Source: a virus (lineage: Duplodnaviria; Caudoviricetes). From it: a stretch of 57,901 nucleotides of DNA. The stretch's first letter is position 1, and the number at the start of each line of letters is the position of its first letter. The notes under the pieces were generated by a model. It was not told where the DNA came from, did not search any database, and worked only from the letters and a program-made list of their open reading frames with translations. Position numbers and translations under genes: made by a program. Shown here piece by piece: positions 4,416 to 45,459 of this stretch. Location of the stretch: positions 1 to 57,901 of IMG/VR virus record IMGVR_UViG_3300010042_000197, one strand, 5' to 3'.

Positions 4416-4631
4416 CGAGCTACCATCCAAACGTGAGCCGAGCACCAATACCGGCCACCCGCTCGCGCACGTTCGCCTCGGCAAACCCAAACAGGACCAA
4501 GTTGTCCCTGACCCGGGCCCCTGCCTCCACGCGTGCGAACGCGCCCGTGAGAGAGGAGACGCCCGCATGGGCCTCCAAGTAGCCCGCCCCCACCGGGACC
4601 TCGGCGAGGACGCGGTCGAGCCCCGCGGCAA

Positions 4632-5195
4632 CTACGAGCCGCGGGGCGTCTGAGGGACCGCCGCCACCACCTGCTCCAGCGCGGCCTTGCTGCCGATGGC
4701 GCCCATGCTGAGCGCGGCATTGATGGCCTGGTTCGCAAGGGCTCCAGCCCCCTGCGACGCAATCTTCTCGGCGGTCAGCTCTGCGCCGTGCATGGCCGTC
4801 CAGGCCGCCTTCGCCTGGGCCTCCTCGGAGCTGGTGGGCACGTAGCCTTTCGTCGCGAGGTGCTCGCGGAAGACGCGCAGGGCCTCGGCCACCTTGTCGT
4901 CCACCTTGTTCTCCGTACGGAGCGCCAGGTCGTTGATGGTGTAGTAGGCGATATTGACGGCGTTGCCGAAGGTACGCAGGCGCTCCTCGGCCTTGTCCTT
5001 CCAGATGGTGCGCGCCAGCGCGATGACGCCAGCGACGGCGAAGCCGGCAACCAGCACCAGCACGTCGGGGTTGGTGAGAATGCCGACGAGGATGCCGCCA
5101 GCGACACTGCCGGCCGTGCTTCCGGCGTCGGCGAGAGCCACGGGCGCGGTGAGGACGGCCGCCGCGAGAGTGGCGAAGGTGAACAGCTTCTTCAT
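4632..5195 (-). CDS. Putative holin (LL-H-like topology)
   Basis: ATG at 5195 with upstream GGAG. N-terminal hydrophobic segments, then AVNIAYY..KVDDKVAEAL; adjacent to the endolysin. Confidence 0.55.
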   Translation of the reverse strand: MKKLFTFATLAAAVLTAPVALADAGSTAGSVAGGILVGILTNPDVLVLVAGFAVAGVIALARTIWKDKAEERLRTFGNAVNIAYYTINDLALRTENKVDDKVAEALRVFREHLATKGYVPTSSEEAQAKAAWTAMHGAELTAEKIASQGAGALANQAINAALSMGAIGSKAALEQVVAAVPQTPRGS

Positions 5196-5266
5196 GTGGG
5201 GGACTCCTTGCGACTGCGAGAGGACTGCGGGGGTGAAAGCGAGCGCCGCGCGACAGGTCATGGCGC

Positions 5267-5719
5267 TCACGGCCAGAACGGCAGGCGTCGGATACCCATG
5301 CGACGAGCGCGGTAGTCGAGACTGGAGAACGTCTTCACGTACGCCCTGGCCTTGGCGGCGTCGGCCAGGGTGAGCGTCGTGCTCCCGCCTCCGGAGGCGC
5401 CCACCACCACGCCTCCGCCCACGTGCACCATGACGTGCTCCGCGTCGGTGGGGTCGCCCTTGCGGTGGTACAGCACCAGGTCTCCAGGGAGCAGCTCCGC
5501 CTTCGGCACGGGGGCGCACCGCGTCCACAGGACGTCCGTGTTGGCGTGTGCGCGCCAGTCCGGCCCACCCACCTCCTGGAAGGCCCAGGTGACAAGCCCC
5601 GAGCAGTCGAAGACGCGCTGGCCGGTGGCACTGTCGCGCTCGCCCTTGCCGTTCCACCGGTAGGGCGCATGCATCTGCGAGAGGACGGCGACGAGGAAGG
5701 CGTTGCGCTGGGCGGACAT
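5267..5719 (-). CDS. NlpC/P60 (C40) peptidoglycan endopeptidase, probable endolysin
   Basis: PYRWNG..FDCSGLVTWAF..LLPGDLVLY..EHVMVHVG motifs. Confidence 0.85.
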   Translation of the reverse strand: MSAQRNAFLVAVLSQMHAPYRWNGKGERDSATGQRVFDCSGLVTWAFQEVGGPDWRAHANTDVLWTRCAPVPKAELLPGDLVLYHRKGDPTDAEHVMVHVGGGVVVGASGGGSTTLTLADAAKARAYVKTFSSLDYRARRMGIRRLPFWP

Positions 5720-14138: not shown

Positions 14139-15195
14139 GGGGCCGCTCCGGGTCCTCGTTCTTGGTGTTGTGCGAGAGGAAGCCCACCGTCTGGTAGGTG
14201 TGCGCGCCGGCCACGGTGATGCGCACCACCGGGCCCCGCCCGGCCGCCTCCGCGCAGGCCACCACGCCCGGGCGCTCGCCGACGAGGCGCATGCCCGCAT
14301 CCAGGTGCCGCAGCTCCTCCCATGCGGCCTCAGTGCGCACGCGGTGGTTGTACGTGCCCACCAGCTCCCGGCCGTCCTCCAGCACCAGGCGCCAGCACTC
14401 CGCCTCCAGCGTGGAGGCGTGGGAGACGGGGTAGTCGCCCCACTCCAGCGTCACCTCGTCCTGGGTGCGCACCCACGCGCCCACGCGCACGTCACCCGCG
14501 GGCACCTCGCGGCCGTCCGAAAGCAGAATGGGTACCCACGGCGCCGGGCACCCTCCGCCCACGGGCCCCTGCCCTCCCGGGCCGTGCTGCCCTCCCGCGC
14601 CTCCGCCGAAGCCGCCGCCCGCGCTCCACTCAGTGGAGATGCCGGCGGACACCACGCAGCTCCCCACCACCATTTCCCCGTAGCAGAGCGGCACCGGGTG
14701 GCCCTGGGCCAACGTATTCACGGGCCCGTTGAAGACGTAGTTGGGCTGGGCGTCAGGCTTCTCCAGTGGCCCCGTGGCCGGGGGCGGTTTGAAGAGGAGC
14801 TGCGCGGCGCCTCCCACCATGAGGCTGCTGCCCAGGGCGATGAGCTGCCCGCCCACCGCGCCGTAGTCGTAGACGGAGAGCACCGCACCGCCAGCGATGA
14901 GCACCGCCCCCAGCACCACCTGGAGGACGCCCGCCTGCTTCGCGCCCGCCAGCGCCGGCAGAATCGTGATGCGCTTCCCCGTGGTGACGCCCAGCTCCTC
15001 GGCGCCGACGTCGCGCTCTCCGACGAGGACGTGGTAGCCGGGAGCGCTGTTCTCCGCGAGGTAGCGGCTGAAGCCCTCGCAGACCGCGCAGAGGGCGCGC
15101 ACCGCCTCCGCGGGCGTGGGCACGCCCAGCTCCAGCGTCCACTCCCGCCCGAAGCGCTGGCCCAGGGGCCCGCCGAGCACCACCGTCGTCAGCAT
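14122..15195 (-). CDS. I: Tail assembly protein (lambda gpI-like, N-terminal ubiquitin-like fold) fused to C-terminal Hint domain
   Basis: LGGPLGQRFGRE..TPAEAVRAL..ILPALAGAK, TM-like segment, NYVFNGPVNTLAQGHPVPLCYGE, then GGG|CPAPW...TYNH...GFLSHN (14550..14167). Confidence 0.88.
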   Translation of the reverse strand: MLTTVVLGGPLGQRFGREWTLELGVPTPAEAVRALCAVCEGFSRYLAENSAPGYHVLVGERDVGAEELGVTTGKRITILPALAGAKQAGVLQVVLGAVLIAGGAVLSVYDYGAVGGQLIALGSSLMVGGAAQLLFKPPPATGPLEKPDAQPNYVFNGPVNTLAQGHPVPLCYGEMVVGSCVVSAGISTEWSAGGGFGGGAGGQHGPGGQGPVGGGCPAPWVPILLSDGREVPAGDVRVGAWVRTQDEVTLEWGDYPVSHASTLEAECWRLVLEDGRELVGTYNHRVRTEAAWEELRHLDAGMRLVGERPGVVACAEAAGRGPVVRITVAGAHTYQTVGFLSHNTKNEDPERPHDEAP

Positions 15196-15929
15196 AGGGT
15201 GCGATGCCGCACAACCTTCCGAGTCACCCGTGCCCAGAAGCCGCTGTACGTCTCCCTCTTGGAGAGCGAAGCCTGGAGGTGGTGGAGGACGACGTCCGCG
15301 CCCAGGTACACGCCTGCGTGGTTGGGGACCTTCGCGCGCAGCTGCATGAGGAGGACGTCGTGCTGACGCAGCGACTGGCCGGTGACGTCGACGAAGCCCG
15401 CCTTCTCGTAGCCCTCCAGGTAGAGGTTGGCGCCCTTGGCCCACCAGTCGTCGGGGCGCTCGAAGTCGGGCAACTCGAGCCCCAGCGTCTCGCGGTAGTA
15501 GTCGCGGATGAGGCTGAAGCAGTCCAGGACGCCGTGGGAAAACTCCCGTCCCACCAGGGGTGCTCTGTAGCCCGAGGGGTACAGCACCTGCCAGTGCCCC
15601 ACCGGCACGTTGACGATGAGCCAGGGCAGGCCCCAGCGCTCGCACATGACGCGGTCCGCCTCGCTCGGCTCCGGGGAGGCGTTCGGGTGCGAGTGCACCA
15701 CCGCCACCACCTCCCCCTCCGCCTCGGCGCTGGCGAAGTCCTCGGGCGCCAGGTGGAAGTGGGCCTGGCCCTCGGCGAGATTGCGGCAGGGCCGATACGC
15801 CAGCTCGCCTGCGGCGCGCACTACGAGGCCGCAGGACTCGCGGGGAGCCTCCGCGCTGGCGTGCTCCAGGGCGGCGATGACTGGGGCACAAGGCAACGCG
15901 AAGCCGGATATCATACCAATAATCCCCAT
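15189..15929 (-). CDS. K: Tail assembly protein (lambda gpK-like; JAB/MPN + NlpC/P60)
   Basis: PRESCGLV..HSHPNASPEPSEAD (JAB) and GVLDCFSLIRDYY..NHAGVY (NlpC/P60); exact start uncertain (15914 or 15929). Confidence 0.92.
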   Translation of the reverse strand: MGIIGMISGFALPCAPVIAALEHASAEAPRESCGLVVRAAGELAYRPCRNLAEGQAHFHLAPEDFASAEAEGEVVAVVHSHPNASPEPSEADRVMCERWGLPWLIVNVPVGHWQVLYPSGYRAPLVGREFSHGVLDCFSLIRDYYRETLGLELPDFERPDDWWAKGANLYLEGYEKAGFVDVTGQSLRQHDVLLMQLRAKVPNHAGVYLGADVVLHHLQASLSKRETYSGFWARVTRKVVRHRTLC

Positions 15930-16108
15930 TTCGGGCGCACGGCGAACCGCACCAACTTCACCCGCCCAGGGGACAAATTCCGAGCCGCTCAGAACAAACT
16001 ATCGGTCTGACATCGACAGCCACACCAATAGACACACCCCTTCCTCGATGCGCGAAGGGTGGAACGAGTGGTGCTTCACGATGACAAACACCACTCGTTC
16101 GCTCGCAA

Positions 16109-37431: not shown

Positions 37432-37589
37432 GCGCCCGAGGCTGGCCTACGTCGAGGACGCCGTCCGGGCGGGGCACTAGGGACTCACGCCGCTGGGCTG
37501 ACCCGGGTTGCCCGCAGGAATCGAATCCCGGAGGATGCTGCCAGCCCGGTCGCCCCCCTCTCGCACACCTCCACGAGAGAAAATCGGCA

Positions 37590-38030
37590 ATGAAGAGCTT
37601 GAAACTGTGGCTGTTGGCCTGTGCGGTCAGTCTCGCGATGGGTTGTGGTGGCACGCCGACCGATATGGCCAGCGAGGGCAAGGAGATGAGTGTTTCCTCG
37701 CAAGAACTGACGGGATGTACCGCCACCTGTGCGCTGGGCACGGTCAGCTGCCCGTCGTCGACTCAAACCTGTTCCGCGACGAACAACGTGGGCGTGACAT
37801 GCGACGGCGTCGCAATTGCCTGCCCACCCACGGGATGCACGCAATGGATGATGAGCTGTGCTGTCATGCAGACCTTGCTCTGCTCCGAGGCCGAGACTAT
37901 TCCATGCTGTAGGGATGACTCGGAAATCGGTGAGTGCATTTGCACCGAATTCGGGCGACGCCCCCCGGTGCTTCTAATACTACCCGGTCAGATGAATCGA
38001 GCGTTGGCGCCCCGTGTTGATGAGGCATGA
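37590..38030 (+). CDS. Cys-rich lipoprotein, C terminus probably disrupted by IS
   Basis: MKSLKLWLLACAVSLAMGC lipobox and many Cys; the pattern stops at ~37975, where IS-like sequence begins. Confidence 0.65.
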   Translation: MKSLKLWLLACAVSLAMGCGGTPTDMASEGKEMSVSSQELTGCTATCALGTVSCPSSTQTCSATNNVGVTCDGVAIACPPTGCTQWMMSCAVMQTLLCSEAETIPCCRDDSEIGECICTEFGRRPPVLLILPGQMNRALAPRVDEA

Positions 38031-38320
38031 CACCCGCAAAGTTACGCAAGCTCGACCGGGAACTGAACGAGTTTCTGGACTCAATGACGGTGGGACTGGG
38101 CCGCACCGAGGGACGTCGCGCCCTCGGCGGCTACGTCACGGACCTGCTGCTGGACGGAGAGCGCAAGAGCATCGAGCCCATGGCGGCCCGGCTCGTTGAG
38201 GAGCCGGGCCAGACGGAGGCCATGCGCCAAAGGTTGCAGCAATGCGGGTCCGGCGCGAGCTGGGAGGATTCCGAAATGCGACGGCGCCTGGCGCAGCAGC
38301 TTGAGCGAGAGCTGCCCCCC
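38027..38320 (+). pseudogene. IS701-family transposase N-terminal fragment
   Basis: YVTDLLLDGERKSIEPMAARL..QRLQQ..ASWEDSEMRRRLA; no DDE core follows. Confidence 0.8.
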
Positions 38321-38440
38321 GTATATGGAGCGGGACTTCGGCAGGTACCTGGAATGCGGAGTGCTGGCGCACGGCTTCGCGCGGGTGCGCTGCGAGAGTT
38401 GCAAGGACAAACTGCTCGTCGCCTTCTCGTGCAAGGGGCT
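38312..38440 (+). pseudogene. IS91-family transposase zinc-binding domain fragment
   Basis: PYMERDFGRYLECGVLAHGFARVRCESC...VAFSCKG. Confidence 0.8.
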
Positions 38441-38519
38441 GACTGCGTTGACTCGGTCGCCCACCGGCAGTATCTTGCGCTATCCGCAGTCTTTTACATT
38501 GTTTGATGAATGGGGGAAC

Positions 38520-38927
38520 ATGTCAGGTTCAGCGCTTGAATCACGTCGTATCATCGACATTTCGGAGCTCGGCCAGAACCCCGGCCTCTTTTCCTGCCCG
38601 CAAAGCCAGACGACCCAGTTTTTTTTCTTCGGGGTGCAGGTGAGTGGGTTGGCCGTGGGGACGACGAAGGTGACCATCAATCTGCTCTCCCCATTGCAGC
38701 TTGATGGCGACACGCAGGGGACTAGCACGACTGAGGTCCCAATAGTCGTACTGGCAGCGGCGGCCGTCATACCTGGTAAGGGTGGGGCCATCGTGGGTAC
38801 GGTCGATGTCACCTTCACGACCGACTTCAACGCACAGACCGTGACGGCGAAGCTCACGGGCAGGTACCTTTTCTCTTCCCTAGCGTACACGGGTATCGTC
38901 GCTTCCTGGGCCAACTCGGCCACGTAG
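38520..38927 (+). CDS. Hypothetical all-beta protein (moron)
   Basis: GGGGGA RBS, ATG at 38520, alternating beta-strand pattern. Confidence 0.55.
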   Translation: MSGSALESRRIIDISELGQNPGLFSCPQSQTTQFFFFGVQVSGLAVGTTKVTINLLSPLQLDGDTQGTSTTEVPIVVLAAAAVIPGKGGAIVGTVDVTFTTDFNAQTVTAKLTGRYLFSSLAYTGIVASWANSAT

Positions 38928-39281
38928 CCTGCGGTGCGCGCCGCCGACGGGCCCGGCCGCCCATCGACCTGCGACATGGTGATGGGCTTACGCATCCCAG
39001 AGCCAAAAGGCCCAGTCACCTACCGCGCACCCCATGGAAGCGCGGCCTGTCCACCCGCTTGGCTCACTGCTCGGGCGGCCCCTGCAGTTCCTCGCCGGGC
39101 GCGGGCTGCTGGGCACCTGACTCCACGAGCTGCGCCACGGCGTACCGCCAGCCCTGCTCCCGCGCCCTCACCTTCTGGGCCGCGCGGGCGCTGAACACCG
39201 TCCCGTCGGGCAGTAGTGAAGGGTGAGCGGCGTCGCACGCCCCCGGTACACCGCGTTGTGCGCCTGATAGATGTTCGGGGA

Positions 39282-39332
39282 TGACACGTCAGGTTTGCGT
39301 GTGGACGTGTCAATGCCCACGCTGACACGTCA
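39282..39332. promoter_or_regulatory. Three TGAC-N2-GTCA-like boxes, candidate operator array
   Basis: TGACACGTCA 39282-39291, GGACGTGTCA 39303-39312, TGACACGTCA 39323-39332; spacing 21 and 20 bp. Confidence 0.55.
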
Positions 39333-39495
39333 GCTCGAAGTTCTGAACGGTATCTCCAGACGAGCAGCGAATGACTATTCTCCTGGCATCTCGCTTGCTG
39401 TAGTCCCGGACCGACGTTCCTTCACCAAAGGCTGGCTGCAGACCACCACGCCAAAGGTCGCGTCGCCGTCCATTTTCCGCCTGGAGCTACAGACA

Positions 39496-39837
39496 ATGCG
39501 TATCCATCAAGCGGCCTTGATCATTCTCGCCCTGCAGGTTCTCGCCCCCTCCACCGCATTCGCTGAATTCTGGTGCGAGTGCCAAGGCGAGGGAAAGCTC
39601 ACCACAGCAGAGGCCAGCCTCACGTCATCAGTGGCCCAAGGCCTCTCTGGATGGGCAAACTTCAAGGTCGATAAGATTAGATTTTCAAGCTGGGGCCGTC
39701 TCTGGAATAATCCGGATACCGCCTGGACTGAATGCAAGCATTGCTTGTCCAGATGCGCTAACGAAAGGGCCCCCATTGGAGTATGCAAGCAAAAAGCCAG
39801 CCTTGCTTGGTTTGAAGCCAGCTACAGGCGTGAATGA
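39496..39837 (+). CDS. Small secreted Cys-rich protein (moron)
   Basis: GGAG RBS, signal peptide ending AFA, six Cys. Confidence 0.65.
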   Translation: MRIHQAALIILALQVLAPSTAFAEFWCECQGEGKLTTAEASLTSSVAQGLSGWANFKVDKIRFSSWGRLWNNPDTAWTECKHCLSRCANERAPIGVCKQKASLAWFEASYRRE

Positions 39838-39979
39838 CAGAGAGAGGCGACTCAAGCGCTGCGCTGGATGTAGCGATTGAGAACGTACCACACGACAGCG
39901 CAACCGAGGGCGCGCAACACGCTGCGCCGAGGTGCCGCTCCTACAGGAGGTGCCGACTCCGCGCCCACTGCCCGCACCT

Positions 39980-40288
39980 CTACGCTCGACACGTGGCACC
40001 TCCGCCCCTGGCGAACACCTGCGGCGTGACGAGCGCTGTGATGAACACTTCCCGCGTCAGCACCATGTCGCCGTCCAGCACCAGAGCCCGGCACTGCCGG
40101 TGGAAGAGTCGGGACAGAGAGTCCCGCGTCCATTCCCGCAGGACACGGCGCATCTTCCTCACCCCGCCCCGGTTCCCCTGGACGTCGAAGGCCGCGCGGG
40201 CCCGCGAAGGCACCAGGCACGGCAGCTCCGAGACGCGTTCCCCGCCTCCCAGCTCGTAGTGAACGAAGTGCCACTCCAGCGCCCTCAC
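39980..40288 (-). CDS. Hypothetical protein
   Basis: GTGA overlap with the portal stop; GGAGG upstream. Confidence 0.5.
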   Translation of the reverse strand: MRALEWHFVHYELGGGERVSELPCLVPSRARAAFDVQGNRGGVRKMRRVLREWTRDSLSRLFHRQCRALVLDGDMVLTREVFITALVTPQVFARGGGATCRA

Positions 40289-41841
40289 GCGACACCTCCA
40301 GCAGCGACACCATGCCCGCCGCCAGCGGGGGGCGGCTGCGGGGACGTCGTGCGGCCGGGAGGCCGGGGCTCGTCCTTCGGCGCCGAGCGAAGCGTGCCCA
40401 ACCTCGGCCCCTCGGCCGCCAGCTCCTCCTCATTCACTCCCACGTCGAAGTCCGCGGAGAGAGTCCCCCGCCGCTTGAGCTCCTTCAGGTAGTTCGGGCG
40501 GGAGAGGTCTTGCGCCTGGCGCGTCTTGAAGAGCACCTCCAGCCCCTGCGCGTCCCCCTCCTCCACGCCGAAGTCCGTGTGGACGGACACCTTCAGCTGG
40601 TCGTCCGGTACCTCCAGGGACACCCACCGGGCCGCGAAGTGGAAGGCCAGGGCCAGCGAATCGCCGAAGCGGCGGGCCATGGACTGGAGCTTCGAGTAGC
40701 TCTGGCCAGTGTTGATGTCCTTCTCCGTCGCCGTGGTGTTGCCCTTCCGCCTGACGACCAGCTCGATGCTGAGCGCCGCCATCTGGTCCTCCAGGCGCTC
40801 CAGGTCCTTCGCACCGGCCTCGATGGCCGCGCCGCCATGCTCGACGTAATAGAACTTCCCCTGGGGGTTGGTGGTGGTGAGCAGCGAGTGGGGGCCAATG
40901 GTGATGCCGGACCGCGCACCGGGACGCCCGAGGAACTCCACGTCCTCGGCGCTCATCCCTTCCGTGCTGGTGCGCTCTTCTCGCGGCGACTCCTCCGTCA
41001 CGCCCGAGGCCGCCAGGATGGGGAACCGCGCCACGGTGAGGATGTTTCGCTGGTCACTGGCGGACTGCCAGTGCTCCAGGTTCTTCTCCGCCAGGGACAG
41101 CAACGGCGGGCGGATGAGCATGAAGCCCTTCGGCTTGCCCGCGTACCAGGTGACGAGGGGGATGAAGCCCAGCGTGTTCTCCCCGCCATCCACCAGCGTC
41201 CAGGTGTCCTTCCCCTCCCGCTCGAAGAGTTTCCACGCCTCCCGCTCGATGACGCGCACCCGCTCCACGGCGGCTTCCTCGTAGCCAGACACCTTCGTCA
41301 CCACCTCGCGGATGCGGACCTGCGTCAGCACCTGGGCGCCGCCCTCCACGGTGGCGTAGGCAGCCAGGAGCGCGTCAGCAGGCACGTGGACGAAGTAGGG
41401 GCGGATGTCCGCCTCCACCTCGTCCGCCCGCGTCTGCACCCGGGCCCTGTCCACCTTGGGGAAGTCGACGAGGATGTGCGTCAGCCCGTTGGCCAGCCCA
41501 TCGGTGAAGACGTTGCGGGCCCAGGACGTCAGGTCGTTGCCCTGCCTGTCCACGTCGCCCACGAGGTTGTGCAGCTCCTCGGGCGCGGAGTCCGCCAGCA
41601 CCACCGGCTTGGTGAAGGGCATCTCCGCCAGCGTGGAGAGGGACGTCTCGAAGTAGTTGAAGAGGAAGCTGCGCTGGAGGCGCTCCTTGTAGGCCTCGTC
41701 GGACTCGCGCGCGTGCCGAGGCAGGTACGTCGTCGCAGCGGCGCGCATGGCCTCCGTGCCCCCCTGGAGGGCCTTCACCATGGCCCAGTGCGGCTCCATC
41801 GCCTTGTAGGCGCTGCTCTTGTTGCTCACGTCGGACGTCAT
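40285..41841 (-). CDS. Portal protein (DUF4055-type)
   Basis: GGTEAMRAAATTYLP..ESDEAYKERL..DVDRQGNDL..ILVDFP..IPLVTWY..PPLLSLAEKNLEHWQSASDQRNIL. Confidence 0.9.
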   Translation of the reverse strand: MTSDVSNKSSAYKAMEPHWAMVKALQGGTEAMRAAATTYLPRHARESDEAYKERLQRSFLFNYFETSLSTLAEMPFTKPVVLADSAPEELHNLVGDVDRQGNDLTSWARNVFTDGLANGLTHILVDFPKVDRARVQTRADEVEADIRPYFVHVPADALLAAYATVEGGAQVLTQVRIREVVTKVSGYEEAAVERVRVIEREAWKLFEREGKDTWTLVDGGENTLGFIPLVTWYAGKPKGFMLIRPPLLSLAEKNLEHWQSASDQRNILTVARFPILAASGVTEESPREERTSTEGMSAEDVEFLGRPGARSGITIGPHSLLTTTNPQGKFYYVEHGGAAIEAGAKDLERLEDQMAALSIELVVRRKGNTTATEKDINTGQSYSKLQSMARRFGDSLALAFHFAARWVSLEVPDDQLKVSVHTDFGVEEGDAQGLEVLFKTRQAQDLSRPNYLKELKRRGTLSADFDVGVNEEELAAEGPRLGTLRSAPKDEPRPPGRTTSPQPPPAGGGHGVAAGGVA

Positions 41842-42080
41842 GGGCGGGCCCTCTCTGCGTGGCCGGGGCGGCGGAGGTGGACGTACTGCCAGGCCCGGAG
41901 GGACAGCCGGGACAGGCGTCGGGAGGTGCGGTCCGCGAGGTAGGCGTAGAAGCGCAGCACCAACACGGTGGAGTCGCGCCGGGCCGCGCGCGGCAGGCCT
42001 CGCCCGCGCAGGCGCCAGGTGGAGGCGGCACGGCGGCGTCCGGCCACCGGCGGCGTGGGTGCGCGGCAGGTGGCGCTCAC
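41838..42080 (-). CDS. Small basic hypothetical protein
   Basis: Coupled at both ends (GTGA with protease stop, ATGA with portal start). Confidence 0.5.
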   Translation of the reverse strand: MSATCRAPTPPVAGRRRAASTWRLRGRGLPRAARRDSTVLVLRFYAYLADRTSRRLSRLSLRAWQYVHLRRPGHAERARP

Positions 42081-42613
42081 CCGGACACCACCCGGAAGGG
42101 GCCACGCACGCCCGCACTGAGTCGCTCAGCCGCGCGCAACGCCATGCGCACCCGGGACTCGGGCTTGAGGTGCCAGGACGCGAAGAGGGCCCCACGCGCA
42201 GCCTCGCTGCCACACCCCACGGCGTCGTAGCCGTCACGGGCCTCGCCCACCTGGTAGTCGGCCTCGAGGCGGAAGAGGTGTCCCGCCACGCCGACGAGAA
42301 AGGTGCCGCCCAGCTCCTGCTCGCTCTGCTTCGTCGCCCAGCCCTTGTCCTTCAGCGCCGCGCGCACGGCGTCGACGAAGTCCACCACCATGTACCGGCC
42401 CAGCGCCCCGGGCTTCCTCGGCGGCGGTGGCGGGCTGAAGGCATGCTGGAGCAACTGCCCCATGCGGTAGGACGAGGTGAAGCCAATGAGGAAAGGGCCG
42501 TTGGAGAACACCTTCACGTCCGAGCGGACGGTGAGCTCGTACCCACCGACTCCAGCGCTGTCCCCGCCCAGGTACACGCGGCCCTTCGCCACCACGCCAG
42601 CAATGCACGTCAC
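42077..42613 (-). CDS. Ntn-hydrolase, proteasome beta-subunit / HslV-like threonine protease
   Basis: AGGAGGT RBS and GTG start giving (M)TCIAG..LGGDS..KVF..IGFTSS..AVGCGSEAARGAL..ALRAAE..VRGPF. Confidence 0.82.
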   Translation of the reverse strand: MTCIAGVVAKGRVYLGGDSAGVGGYELTVRSDVKVFSNGPFLIGFTSSYRMGQLLQHAFSPPPPPRKPGALGRYMVVDFVDAVRAALKDKGWATKQSEQELGGTFLVGVAGHLFRLEADYQVGEARDGYDAVGCGSEAARGALFASWHLKPESRVRMALRAAERLSAGVRGPFRVVSG

Positions 42614-43113
42614 GTTGTCACCTCCTGCGCCATGCGGCGGACAGCGGACTCGCCGCGCACCAGGGTGAAGAGAGAGGCCATGGGGGCACCCATGTCGGCC
42701 GGGCCCGCCAGCAGCAGGTGCAGCACCTCGGGCCGGGAGGGCGTCAGCGCCCCTTGAATGGAGGCCACGTCCGTCGCGGACAGCACCGCGGGGCCGCCCG
42801 GGTGGGTGTGCCAGTCGCCCAGGTAGCCCAGCCGGGGGTGGATGCGCGCCACCAGCTGGGTGTCCCGCGCCCCGTCCGACTCGTAGCCCAGGCGGCTGCG
42901 ACGCGCGCGCCTTCCCGGGCCCGTCAGCGCCAGCACGTGGGCCTCGCCGTCCACCACCTGCCCCAGCAGCAGCCCGCCCGTCTCCAGCGGGGCGCGCACG
43001 CGGGCCAAGCGCTGGGCCTTCGCCAGCACCGCACTCCGCACCCAGACGCGGTACGGGCCGGACACGTACAGGGCGGCACCTGGTGCCGGTGCCATGGCGC
43101 ACGCGACGCTCAC
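42610..43113 (-). CDS. Stand-alone JAB/MPN (Mov34-like) metallo-isopeptidase
   Basis: PLETGGLLLG..TGPG..YLGDWHTHPGGPAVLSATD = E..HxH-x7-S-x2-D JAMM motif; start is GTG 43113 (coupled to terL stop) or ATG 43095. Confidence 0.85.
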   Translation of the reverse strand: MSVACAMAPAPGAALYVSGPYRVWVRSAVLAKAQRLARVRAPLETGGLLLGQVVDGEAHVLALTGPGRRARRSRLGYESDGARDTQLVARIHPRLGYLGDWHTHPGGPAVLSATDVASIQGALTPSRPEVLHLLLAGPADMGAPMASLFTLVRGESAVRRMAQEVTT

Positions 43114-44726
43114 CGGTAGCTCCCCACCTTGAAGGTGTCGGCATCCTTGCCCAGCATCAGCTCCGTCAGTGCCCACACCGCGGCGTCCATGCGGTTGGGG
43201 CTCCAGGTGGACTCTCCCGGCACCCAGGTCGTCATCTCGTCCTCGAGGGCAGGCAGCAGGCCCACGTGGTGCACCTTCCCGCGCTCGTACAGGGCGGCCA
43301 CGGGCTCGGCGCGCTTCGCCTTGCCGCGAGAGGCCGTCACCACCTTCACGTTGACGGGCTTGCGCATCTCCTTCGCCTTGCTGCGAATGGTGGTCTCCAC
43401 CATGTCGCCGCCGAAGTTCTTCTCGCCCACCACGGCGTCGGCCACCTCCCGCTCGTAGGCCGCCAGCGCCTTCGTGGCCCACGCCTCGGCGGAGAGCTTC
43501 CCAGAGGCGTCCAGCCACACGTAGGCGTGCCCGTTGGAGGCCTTGCCGGCGCAGACAATACCCACCTCATCGTTGCTGGGGCCGTCCCCGCCTGCCGGGT
43601 CCACTGCCACCACCACGCGCACCATGGGCAGCGGCTTGCCCTCGGCGTCCACAGGCTTCGGCGCGCGCGTGTTCTCCAGCGTCTCCGGCGTCCACAGCGC
43701 GCCCACCGCCGCCGCCTTGAAGGCCTCCTCCACCGTCGCCGGGTACTCGCGCCGGAAGTCGGCCACGCCCTTCTCGAAGCCGGACACCTTCGAGCGGCGC
43801 CACGCCAGCTGCCCATCGTCCAGGGCGTAGCCGTGCACCTGGTGGCACAGCTCCGCGTACCGCACCTCCTCCGAGGTGCGCTCGAAGCCCGCGGGCACCG
43901 CCAGGCGGTACTCGTCCTGCCAGAACCACGGGATGAAGATGAGCTCGTACTCGTTCTCCCCCTTCTGCGCCGCGAGGCAGAGCCGGTAGAAGAGTCCCTG
44001 CGGCCCGTCGCTGGTGGACTCGAGGATGATTTCCGTCCCCGGCACGTTGCCCACGGCCTCCAGCACGCCGCGCATGTGGCCCGAGGCGTTGGGCCAGAAG
44101 GCGACTTCCGAGCCGTGGAAATACTGCAGCGTCGACGAGCGCCCCGTCCCCTTGCTCCCTGCGGTGCCCACCTTGTATCCAGAGGCGAGCTTGTCGAAGA
44201 GCAGCTCCTTCGCGTTGGACGCGCTCGTGGTGGGCTTCACGAGCGCCGGGCAGTGCTCGTGGTACGTCTTCGCCATCTTGAAGAGGTTCGCCGTCGCCGG
44301 GTCCTCGTGCGTCAGGATGTAGGCGCTCACGCCCTTCCGGTGCGTCACCCGCCAGTAGAAGCGCGCCTCCACGTACGTGCTGCACCCCTGCTGCCGCCCC
44401 TTGAGGATGATGGCGCGCACCCTCCCCGTCTTCCGGAGCTGCGCCTCCAGCCTCTCGTGCAGGTACAGCTGGGCCTTGTTCAGCTTCAGCTGCGGCAGCT
44501 CCGCCCCAGACACCTCCTTCGGGCGAATCCGCAGGCACTTCTCCGCGTAGTGGGGGAAGTCGTCCTTCAGTCGCTGGCGGATGGCCTTCTCTCGCGGCGA
44601 CAGCTCCTTCTGCACCTCCTGCGCCGCCGGCCGCCCACCACGCCCCCTCAGCTCGCGCGGCTGACGGCGCCGAGCCACCTGCGACCGGAGGGAGGGCTTC
44701 TTCCGCGCCTGCCGGGCCGCGCTCAC
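43110..44726 (-). CDS. terL: Terminase large subunit
   Basis: LNKAQ..ILKGRQQGCST (Walker A), FHGSEVAFW, ILESTSDG, VVVAVDPA, GEKNFGG, SPNRMDA. Confidence 0.93.
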   Translation of the reverse strand: MSAARQARKKPSLRSQVARRRQPRELRGRGGRPAAQEVQKELSPREKAIRQRLKDDFPHYAEKCLRIRPKEVSGAELPQLKLNKAQLYLHERLEAQLRKTGRVRAIILKGRQQGCSTYVEARFYWRVTHRKGVSAYILTHEDPATANLFKMAKTYHEHCPALVKPTTSASNAKELLFDKLASGYKVGTAGSKGTGRSSTLQYFHGSEVAFWPNASGHMRGVLEAVGNVPGTEIILESTSDGPQGLFYRLCLAAQKGENEYELIFIPWFWQDEYRLAVPAGFERTSEEVRYAELCHQVHGYALDDGQLAWRRSKVSGFEKGVADFRREYPATVEEAFKAAAVGALWTPETLENTRAPKPVDAEGKPLPMVRVVVAVDPAGGDGPSNDEVGIVCAGKASNGHAYVWLDASGKLSAEAWATKALAAYEREVADAVVGEKNFGGDMVETTIRSKAKEMRKPVNVKVVTASRGKAKRAEPVAALYERGKVHHVGLLPALEDEMTTWVPGESTWSPNRMDAAVWALTELMLGKDADTFKVGSYR

Positions 44727-45316
44727 TCCAACTCCCCCAGCGCTTCCTCGTGGCTCTTCTTCACCTCCGTCAGCTCCACCTTGTCGGTGAAGAGCTTCAG
44801 GTACTTGCCCAGCAGTTCCAGCGCCTTGTCCTTCGGCCAGAGCTTCAGCTTCGTCACCGTGCCGACCTGGACGCGCTCCTCCCCCTTCCCCGCGAAGAGC
44901 TCTTCCACCTCGATGCTGGAGATGGCCCGGCGGAAGTCCTCGGGCATGTCCTTCAGCATGAGCACCCCACCGCGCTCGCCCACCCCCTGCCCGATGTCGG
45001 AGAACGCCAGGCGCCGCAACTCGCGCAGCACCTCTGACACCTCGACCCGGACCTCGTCCTGGACCGCCTCCTCGAGCGCGGCTTGGCCAGCCTCCACGGC
45101 CGCCAGAACCTTGGCATTCCTCAACAGGCGGGAGCCCTGCGACTCCGCCGTCTTCGCGGAGTAGCCGGCGCGAATGGCGGCCTGGGCCGCGCAGGAGTCC
45201 TTCAGGTACTCCCGGACGAAGGCGCGCTGCTTGGGCGTCAGCTCGCGCGAGGCATCGCCCGTGCCGTCGTCCGGCTCCGGGGCGTCAGGCGGGGTGGTGG
45301 GGGGCTTTCGTGCCAC
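44723..45316 (-). CDS. terS: Terminase small subunit
   Basis: LTPKQRAFVREYLKD..AAIRAGYSAKTAESQGSRLL..KDKALELLGKYL. Confidence 0.92.
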   Translation of the reverse strand: MARKPPTTPPDAPEPDDGTGDASRELTPKQRAFVREYLKDSCAAQAAIRAGYSAKTAESQGSRLLRNAKVLAAVEAGQAALEEAVQDEVRVEVSEVLRELRRLAFSDIGQGVGERGGVLMLKDMPEDFRRAISSIEVEELFAGKGEERVQVGTVTKLKLWPKDKALELLGKYLKLFTDKVELTEVKKSHEEALGELE

Positions 45317-45459
45317 GGCGCCGAGTGTTGGCGCGGGTGGGGACGGTGTCCGGGTCGCCGACCAACGACGGGCTGTCAACCGGGAGCCACCCGGAGTGGG
45401 CTACAGTCTTCTCGGTTGGGTCACCCACGCGGCAAAGCCGCATTGCCCGGACGAGTTGC

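Follow-up and report, generated by a model that had tools for sequence, protein, structure and literature searches.

Single-gene inserts between the large terminase and portal genes of a Myxococcaceae prophage lineage, with an orphan Cap3-like JAB as a candidate counter-defence deconjugase

What a JAB-type isopeptidase gene and a gene for a proteasome-like protease are doing between the large terminase (terL) and portal genes of a prophage is the question raised by IMG/VR record IMGVR_UViG_3300010042_000197, a provirus record whose 57,901 nucleotides (57.9 kb, 68% G+C), taken as a whole, are here called the window. The element is a siphovirus-type prophage of the Myxococcaceae, and a third small gene, orf80, completes the insert. 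A sequence-only reading had taken the first two genes for a minimal deconjugase and protease pair, acting either in late counter-defence or in virion maturation. Here, I propose that the terL-portal junction is a slot of independent, late-expressed accessory genes, in which the JAB, an orphan relative of Cap3, would be a counter-defence deconjugase; both its deconjugation target and its counter-defence role are what I infer from sequence comparison, and the proposal is held tentatively, at somewhat less than even confidence. The genes concerned are the following:

44723-45379, minus strand: open reading frame (ORF) of 218 aa, putative small terminase from its position alone, directly upstream of terL
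43110-44726, minus strand: terL, 538 aa (Pfam Terminase_6C, 4.7e-13; phrog_38, 1e-26, and phrog_979, 6.5e-24, both 'terminase large subunit')
42610-43113, minus strand: JAB/JAMM metallopeptidase, orphan and Cap3-like, 167 aa, GTG start (Prok-JAB, 1.3e-11)
42077-42613, minus strand: HslV/BPH-like N-terminal-threonine (Ntn) protease, 178 aa, GTG start, without propeptide (phrog_1040, 9.4e-19)
41838-42080, minus strand: orf80, arginine-rich small protein, 80 aa (third-position GC; conserved core in relatives)
40285-41841, minus strand: portal, 518 aa, DUF4055 type (PF13264, 6.3e-36; phrog_145 'portal protein', 7e-122)

Read on the coding strand, the terL/JAB, JAB/protease, protease/orf80 and orf80/portal junctions are GTGA, GTGA, GTGA and ATGA, the portal ATG overlapping the stop codon of orf80, and a fifth overlap (GTGA) joins the stop of the 218-aa ORF to the start of terL. 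Third-position GC (0.83-1.0) tracks every proposed frame, orf80 included over 41840-41990, and is ambiguous over 41990-42080, that is, over the first 30 or so codons at the 5' end of orf80. The junctions and frames bear out the five-gene order with four GTGA/ATGA overlaps first noticed in the letters, as well as the coupling of the insert into the late operon; with the four-nucleotide overlaps retained, the slot genes would be translated along with the late packaging and head genes.

That the junction behaves as a slot is best seen by comparison with 13 further proviruses with the same portal type, which together with the window make 14 related Myxococcaceae proviruses. Their slot contents are:

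JAB, protease and orf80: four (window, L007, L008, L009)
JAB and protease: three (L022, L023, L024)
JAB and orf80: four (L020, L026, L027, L042)
JAB alone: two (L021, L025)
empty: one (L124)

The JAB is thus present in 13 of the 14, the protease in seven and orf80 in eight, and the 218-aa ORF is kept 5' of terL across the related proviruses at 49-93% identity. A case in point is L124, in which terL (80% identical) overlaps the portal start in GTGA with none of the three slot genes, and whose head module, running terS-terL-portal-MuF-scaffold-capsid, is the same as that of the window (capsid 80% identical); judged by gene content, the three slot genes are outside the minimal head gene set. In L021, L022, L025 and L124, every junction inspected is an ATGA or GTGA four-nucleotide overlap, so that the genes behave as precise single-ORF plug-ins.

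The slot genes and their flanks also appear to have moved separately. The protease of L007 is 99% identical to that of the window and its terL 73%, and the relation is reversed in L009 (protease 66%, terL 97%), a pattern that points to separate exchange of protease and terL. Along the same line, L123, L129 and L130 carry a JAB-orf80-portal block behind a different, T4-type terL of 462 aa, which matches Pfam Terminase_6N/6C in L123 and is 87% identical to that copy in L129 and L130; the arrangement shows apparent mosaic exchange at the terL/JAB boundary. Two pairs of contigs with a common IMG identifier prefix suggest two related proviruses per genome, differing in slot state. The lineage is rare, the JAB having turned up (E<=1e-20) in just 2 when 151 genomes from the host's family were searched.

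Two further observations concern the junction. The portal match of the JAB-alone locus L021 (5501-6982) holds one in-frame stop codon, and this element may be decaying. Among 21 distant phages with DUF4055-type portals (L132-L152), an ORF of 340-520 aa, presumed to be terL, abuts or overlaps the portal start in 13; a gap of 180-800 nucleotides is present in seven, three of them with an ORF of 61-141 aa, and one has no upstream ORF in the locus.

What kind of enzyme, then, is the JAB? With 44.8 bits it lies above the Pfam cut-off (25) for Prok-JAB (PF14464), and E44, H102, T103, H104, S112 and D115 are invariant in 19 aligned sequences, leaving the E..HTH..S..D motif intact. It matches 26 PADLOC families, for the most part JAB models of CBASS, the antiphage signalling system built on cyclic oligonucleotides (best 1.6e-16), and it scores below the curated NCBIfam cut-offs for Cap3 equivalogs (NF050170, 31.7 bits vs 200; TIGR02256, 41.7 vs 127.6). 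The predicted structure (predicted local distance difference test, pLDDT, 90) has an MPN fold, whose top matches are Cap3, Rpn11 and archaeal Rpn11 homologues: the best is PDB 9ild_A, 'Complex structure of Cap3 and CD-NTase' (template modelling, TM, score 0.77/0.84; Foldseek E 3.5e-11), followed by Rpn11 (E 2.2e-8), and 9ild_A is also the best PDB match by sequence (1.4e-5).

Genomic relatives were collected by a scan for the motif YLGDWHTH in one genome per species, the best 80 of 194 stretches being retained. Three of these are prophages, in Myxococcus eversor, Corallococcus carmarthensis and Myxococcus sp. Y35. The 77 non-Myxococcaceae loci have a same-strand upstream ORF in 60 instances, of which 55 were scanned, five ORFs of 60-69 aa being dropped, and Cap2 (PADLOC E1-E2) accounts for 52 of these 55 neighbours. 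A hidden Markov model (HMM) built from the 55 upstream ORFs, 52 of them E1-E2 by PADLOC, finds no Cap2-like ORF in the window. A quick maximum-likelihood tree, computed from 93 JABs, places the 13 prophage copies in a single clade (SH-aLRT, the Shimodaira-Hasegawa-like approximate likelihood ratio test, 98) on a long stem among Cap2-adjacent JABs; 'Cap2-adjacent' means here that an upstream ORF of at least 280 aa is present, a label that is unverified for L030, whose 642-aa neighbour matched no Pfam or PADLOC family, and four JAB ORFs (108, 360, 566 and 605 aa) were omitted for length.

With Cap3 of type II CBASS the window JAB therefore shares the JAMM motif, the fold and the position of its nearest cellular relatives directly after Cap2 E1-E2 genes; it differs in having neither Cap2, cyclase nor effector, in falling under the curated cut-offs within a long-stemmed clade of its own, and in its place in a phage late operon, where its neighbours are terL and the HslV-like gene rather than the CD-NTase and Cap2 that lie alongside in a Cap3 operon. 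By its matches and its modelled fold, it is an orphan, Cap3-like JAMM isopeptidase outside the curated Cap3 equivalogs. The JAB assignment with an intact motif, made at first sight of the sequence, stands, and the link then drawn to Cap3-type deconjugases has gained in strength from 9ild_A, by sequence as well as fold, and from the Cap2 neighbours.

The window holds a second JAB (15189-15998, minus strand, 269 aa), in which Prok-JAB (4.5e-17) is joined to NlpC/P60 (8.9e-13), the architecture of the lambda-type tail-tip protein K. Both are phage-encoded Prok-JAB proteins; protein K is two-domain and belongs to the tail module, whereas the slot JAB is single-domain, lies in the packaging module and is closest to Cap3. 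Matching second JABs also occur in three host genomes, where 21-32 kb of the same contig separate them from the JAB of the packaging module. A single-sequence JAB search of these three genomes returned the prophage copy alone, and further JABs appeared with the Pfam family search.

The protease begins (M)TCIAG; T2, D18 (in GGDS), K34 and G44 are invariant in 14 sequences, and G133 and G135 (in GCGS) are also conserved. The initiator Met is cleaved off ahead of a small residue, and since residue 2 is Thr, T2, D18 and K34 would become Thr1/Asp17/Lys33 without any propeptide, like in E. coli HslV. The protein belongs with phrog_1040 ('peptidase HslV family') and is under the cut-off of Pfam Proteasome (PF00227; 11.6 bits vs 22.4). 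A single-sequence search of PDB gives spurious matches only (E ~1), and a profile of the protease family finds BPH (5ovu, 5e-7) and HslV (1m4y, 7e-6). The predicted structure (pLDDT 88.7) is an alpha-beta-beta-alpha sandwich with both helix pairs present, best matched in Foldseek by BPH (5ovs, TM 0.80, E 1.3e-10), HslV chains following at TM ~0.70. The catalytic apparatus, as judged by these residues, is intact, in agreement with the earlier assignment to the Ntn proteases and its Thr1/Asp17/Lys33/GCGS pattern. The Ntn fold, the catalytic residues and the lack of a propeptide are shared with HslV and BPH; what differs from HslV is that no ATPase gene or HslU-type partner is seen in the cassette or beside the protease.

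Relatives of the protease are present in 204 GenBank phage records, each below 60% identity (tblastn). Phage-borne proteasome homologues, namely PPH, AAH and CPH, have been described by Fuchs, Alva and Lupas in 2021 (PMC8665760), and excerpts of that paper portray PPH as a protein of ~140 aa without helix H2 and the gene context as uninformative with regard to function. Compared with these excerpts, the window protease has both helix pairs and so is not the ~140-aa PPH, and its subfamily often adjoins packaging genes (see below). As to variants, a 127-kb viral contig (L015) carries two tandem HslV-like genes (4431-4976 and 5001-5552) beside a tRNA nucleotidyltransferase, the proteins being 32% and 43% identical to the window protease, and L247 likewise gives two HMM matches; the tandem genes of L015 might be a two-subunit form.

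The third module, orf80, has 20 Arg and no Lys in 80 residues. Its core (residues ~32-79) is found in seven related loci at 57-91% identity; it matches no Pfam, PHROG, NCBIfam or PADLOC family, among 5.8 billion only four protein clusters match it, the two named ones both coming from Myxococcus, and the Atlas search gave no usable match. It appears to be a real, lineage-restricted gene.

Do the JAB and the protease belong together? An alignment-based scan of IMG/VR provided protease relatives, the best 80 of 359 (49-99% identity) being taken with 6-kb flanks. A JAB (HMM from alignment A1, E<=1e-3) lies within 6 kb at six Myxococcaceae loci only and at none of the 74 other viral protease loci; likewise, tblastn finds the protease at none of the 77 non-Myxococcaceae genomic JAB loci. 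An obligate two-gene system of JAB and protease was accordingly rejected, co-occurrence being confined to the Myxococcaceae prophage lineage, and the 'minimal deconjugase + protease pair' of the sequence-only reading is unsupported, given that the two genes vary independently over the 14 proviruses and that the other protease loci have no JAB.

On these findings, the explanation given at the outset would run as follows. The terL-portal junction would serve as a slot that takes up single ORFs by precise insertion, the stop/start overlap of four nucleotides being retained each time, and in the window it would hold three independent modules, the JAB, the protease and orf80. The JAB would undo the work of Cap2-type E1-E2 enzymes (the conjugation of a CD-NTase or of a ubiquitin-like protein to its target), and type II CBASS, or a related immunity based on conjugation, would thereby be blunted or reset while the structural proteins are being made. 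The second module would be a compact HslV/BPH-type threonine protease whose nucleophile is exposed on loss of the initiator Met, and the third, orf80, a lineage-specific and very basic protein. Of the late counter-defence proposed before, the kinship to Cap3 has stood and makes it the leading reading, the role in counter-defence itself being a proposal.

The host background offers something for such a deconjugase to act on. Excerpts of one study (PMC11506125) report type II CBASS with E1/E2 and JAB proteins in M. xanthus, and an adjacent Cap2-like and JAB pair was found in one of three host genomes searched (G002; L164, G002:C344), that of the Corallococcus host of a JAB and protease provirus; this pair is probably type II CBASS. 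No relevant paper on Cap3-like or phage-encoded Cap3 proteins was found in the literature search, and in excerpts of the Bil preprint (bioRxiv 10.1101/2023.09.04.556158) the terms searched turned up no phage-encoded deubiquitinase.

Each of the two genes recurs separately beside packaging genes in unrelated phages. The ORFs of the 74 other protease loci, some of which are near-duplicates so that the counts are non-independent, were compared with a set of 15 terminase and portal proteins that the analysis had already identified: on the strand of the protease, a terS, terL or portal match is no more than 3 kb away at at least 35 of the 74 loci, and no more than 150 nucleotides away at 18. For 33 of the remaining 39 loci, the nearest large ORF is most commonly terL (phrog_9, three) and portal (phrog_30703, three), the others being replication and other genes. 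Four arrangements illustrate the context:

L012: terL, protease, portal-MuF fusion
L014: terL, 125-aa ORF, protease, portal
L010: terS, protease, 113-aa ORF, terL
L013: protease, two small ORFs, terL

Conventional head maturation proteases are also carried by L012 (phrog_80) and L014 (phrog_4523/133). In three annotated GenBank phages with the protease (92-177 kb), none of the neighbours up to 4 kb away bears the name of a terminase or portal.

The 12 non-Myxococcaceae IMG/VR JAB loci comprise five Cap2-JAB pairs on viral contigs (L032, L033, L036, L038 and L039, of which L032 and L038 have a verified E1-E2 and L038 a verified cyclase too), six loci in head or packaging modules, and L030 apart. 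The head-module arrangements, together with the single GenBank phage match, are:

L028/L029: JAB after a 'head closure' protein
L031: Mu-type portal, 274-aa ORF, gpG-like protein, JAB, head protease
L034/L035: T7-type portal, Bbp19, JAB, protease
L037: JAB immediately before a gpA-type terL
MW202482.1: terL, portal, carboxypeptidase, JAB, MuF

In the last of these, a podovirus (L172; MW202482.1 40676-41721), the genes for a D-alanyl-D-alanine carboxypeptidase and the JAB stand together between portal and MuF. A scan of viral contigs with back-translated GDWHTHP gave 25 stretches, five of them on contigs new to the analysis: two of these five are Cap2-JAB pairs, a third lies ~1.1 kb away from a DUF4055-like portal, a fourth is at the edge of its contig and the last has no JAB match. 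Further Cap2-JAB pairs on viral contigs are L260 and L263. In the tree, the head-module JABs of unrelated phages are spread over several places among Cap3 sequences, a pattern consistent with more than one independent capture; the well-supported branches may also be compatible with a single origin of four head-module JABs, two of the four being on long branches.

Several points weigh against a counter-defence role. A Cap2-JAB pair is present in only one of the three host genomes searched, and the JAB of that host shares just 31-35% identity with its phage counterpart over 68-81 residues, too little for a recent capture from it. In Bacillus cereus type II CBASS, Cap3 increases immunity, according to excerpts of a preprint (bioRxiv 10.1101/2023.09.29.560134), so that a deconjugase is not automatically directed against CBASS. 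Late co-translation with terL is an odd timing for a counter-defence protein. The scores below the Cap3 cut-offs may mean that the substrate of the JAB differs from that of Cap3, and the recurrence near portal and terminase genes could reflect a role in head assembly. Moreover, the JAB homologue scans use one motif (YLGDWHTH/GDWHTHP) and hence give a biased sample, the gene surveys being motif-limited samples of 23 and 80 loci.

The timing would pose no problem in an extended form of the proposal, which is unlikely on present grounds: orphan Cap3-like JABs, repeatedly captured into the head and packaging modules of phages, would make up a class of counter-defence enzyme not described before, one that reverses Cap2 conjugation as the priming step in type II CBASS or related ubiquitin-like immunity, and they may be packaged in the capsid and injected with the protease and orf80, the protease being an effector. 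Injected with the DNA, the three proteins would act before the host system fires, which, speculatively, removes the difficulty of late expression. According to excerpts of Iyer et al. 2017 (PMC5512222), a portal/terminase/MuF context of an enzyme gene is a sign of packaging and injection. The window JAB is such an enzyme gene among portal, terminase and MuF genes; it differs from the effectors in these excerpts in standing alone, unfused to MuF or portal, and the JAB domains there are of the RadC type.

The head module downstream bears on the structural alternatives. On the 3' side of the portal gene, ~3 kb of lower-GC DNA is followed by a MuF-like head morphogenesis gene and then by genes for scaffold (phrog_206), major capsid (phrog_212), adaptor, neck, tail terminator, tail tube and chaperone, and by a 1297-aa ORF. 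The stretch between portal and MuF-like gene (window ~37450-40285) has a GC of 0.62-0.65 and ORFs on the opposite strand. The corresponding gap is 2.9-4.6 kb in L120, L121 and L123 and only 50-470 nucleotides in L124-L131, and L122 has no MuF match inside the 6 kb of available flank; this stretch looks like a second cargo slot. Among the 10 downstream head and neck ORFs scanned, a prohead protease is never the best match, as the sequence-only reading had held for the head module; the sole protease-named match is secondary, that of the MuF-like ORF to phrog_595 (2e-15, against 5e-129 for head morphogenesis).

Could the insert then serve virion maturation, the HslV-like protein being the prohead protease, or the JAB processing a head protein, or both? 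The missing prohead protease and the recurrence of both families by terminase and portal genes would suit this idea, which was the second half of the original proposal and is very unlikely. L124, with its identical set of head genes, is free of all three inserts, half of the 14 proviruses have no protease, and the window has a scaffold gene of its own. Scaffold-type heads, those of P22 and SPP1 for example, reach maturity without any protease. In L012 and L014 the protease lies between terL and portal, and conventional proteases are present as well, so that the HslV-like gene is no substitute for one, and the three large GenBank phages have it away from genes named terminase or portal. A prohead-protease role for the protease was rejected on its absence from seven of the 14 relatives, L124 among them, and on its coexistence with conventional proteases. 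It is also quite improbable that the JAB processes some other phage protein, one with a C-terminal extension or a ubiquitin-like domain, in parallel with the JAB of the lambda-type protein K. JAB enzymes cut C-terminal extensions off ubiquitin-like precursors too, the gene is near-constant in the lineage, and the K-like protein elsewhere in the window indicates that phages use JAB domains structurally; L124 nonetheless has the same head genes without the JAB, the ORFs scanned yielded no recognisable ubiquitin-like gene or domain, and the nearest relatives are Cap3 rather than tail-type JABs.

A different possibility, distinctly unlikely, is that the JAB serves the prophage or its host, by tuning or activating the host's conjugation immunity, by preventing autoimmunity during lysogeny or induction, or through superinfection exclusion. 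The B. cereus excerpts, in which Cap3 releases the cyclase and thereby raises immunity, would agree with it, temperate phages often bear defence cargo, and complete Cap2-JAB pairs do occur on the viral contigs named above; against this, neither Cap2 nor cyclase accompanies the JAB in the window, and a promoter of its own would find no room in the overlaps with terL and portal, which argues for late lytic rather than lysogenic expression. Very improbable indeed is a coupled machine after the manner of Rpn11 and the proteasome, in which the JAB strips the tag and hands the substrate to an HslV-like ring. In the window and six related proviruses the JAB and protease genes adjoin each other with translational coupling, both active sites are intact, and as in the 26S proteasome, where Rpn11 is a deubiquitinase, a JAMM enzyme and a threonine protease are encoded together. 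Yet six of the 13 JAB-bearing relatives have no protease, the two surveys outside the Myxococcaceae found neither gene beside the other, the recombination histories of the two genes differ, and the cassette gives no sign of physical or obligate genetic coupling and contains no ATPase or ubiquitin-like gene. A complex prediction for protease and JAB, both given as alignments, scored 0.01 against a mark of 0.32, a value that bears neither way on binding.

Returning to the counter-defence proposal, its proposed target pathway, CBASS, is shared with the known phage anti-CBASS proteins Acb1, Acb2 and Vs.4. Acb1, a nuclease, and Acb2, a nucleotide sponge, both act on the cyclic nucleotide signal. 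The sponge Vs.4 acts on that signal as well, according to excerpts of PMC10449767. The window JAB, by contrast, would act at the conjugation step.

To sum up, the JAB and protease families are themselves already known; what is new is, first, that an orphan Cap3-like JAB is a fixed member of a phage late operon, for which other head modules offer parallels, and second, that a compact phage proteasome homologue has a recurring packaging-module context. Phage proteasome homologues thereby gain a recurring gene context, that of terminase and portal, in which their function becomes testable in a defined setting, and if the packaged-effector idea is true, the compact homologue would be an effector protease linked to the packaging module rather than a housekeeping enzyme. 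How accessory genes can enter a tightly coupled late operon is illustrated by the one-ORF insertions, in which the ATGA/GTGA coupling is preserved, and even without any effect on defence the slot clearly exemplifies modular cargo within a prophage lineage, one carried by 2 of the 151 sampled genomes of the host's family. If the counter-defence reading is true, a phage-borne deconjugase would be a simple reagent for the study of bacterial ubiquitin-like conjugation, and it would hit the E1-E2 priming step, where known phage countermeasures to CBASS hit the nucleotide signal.

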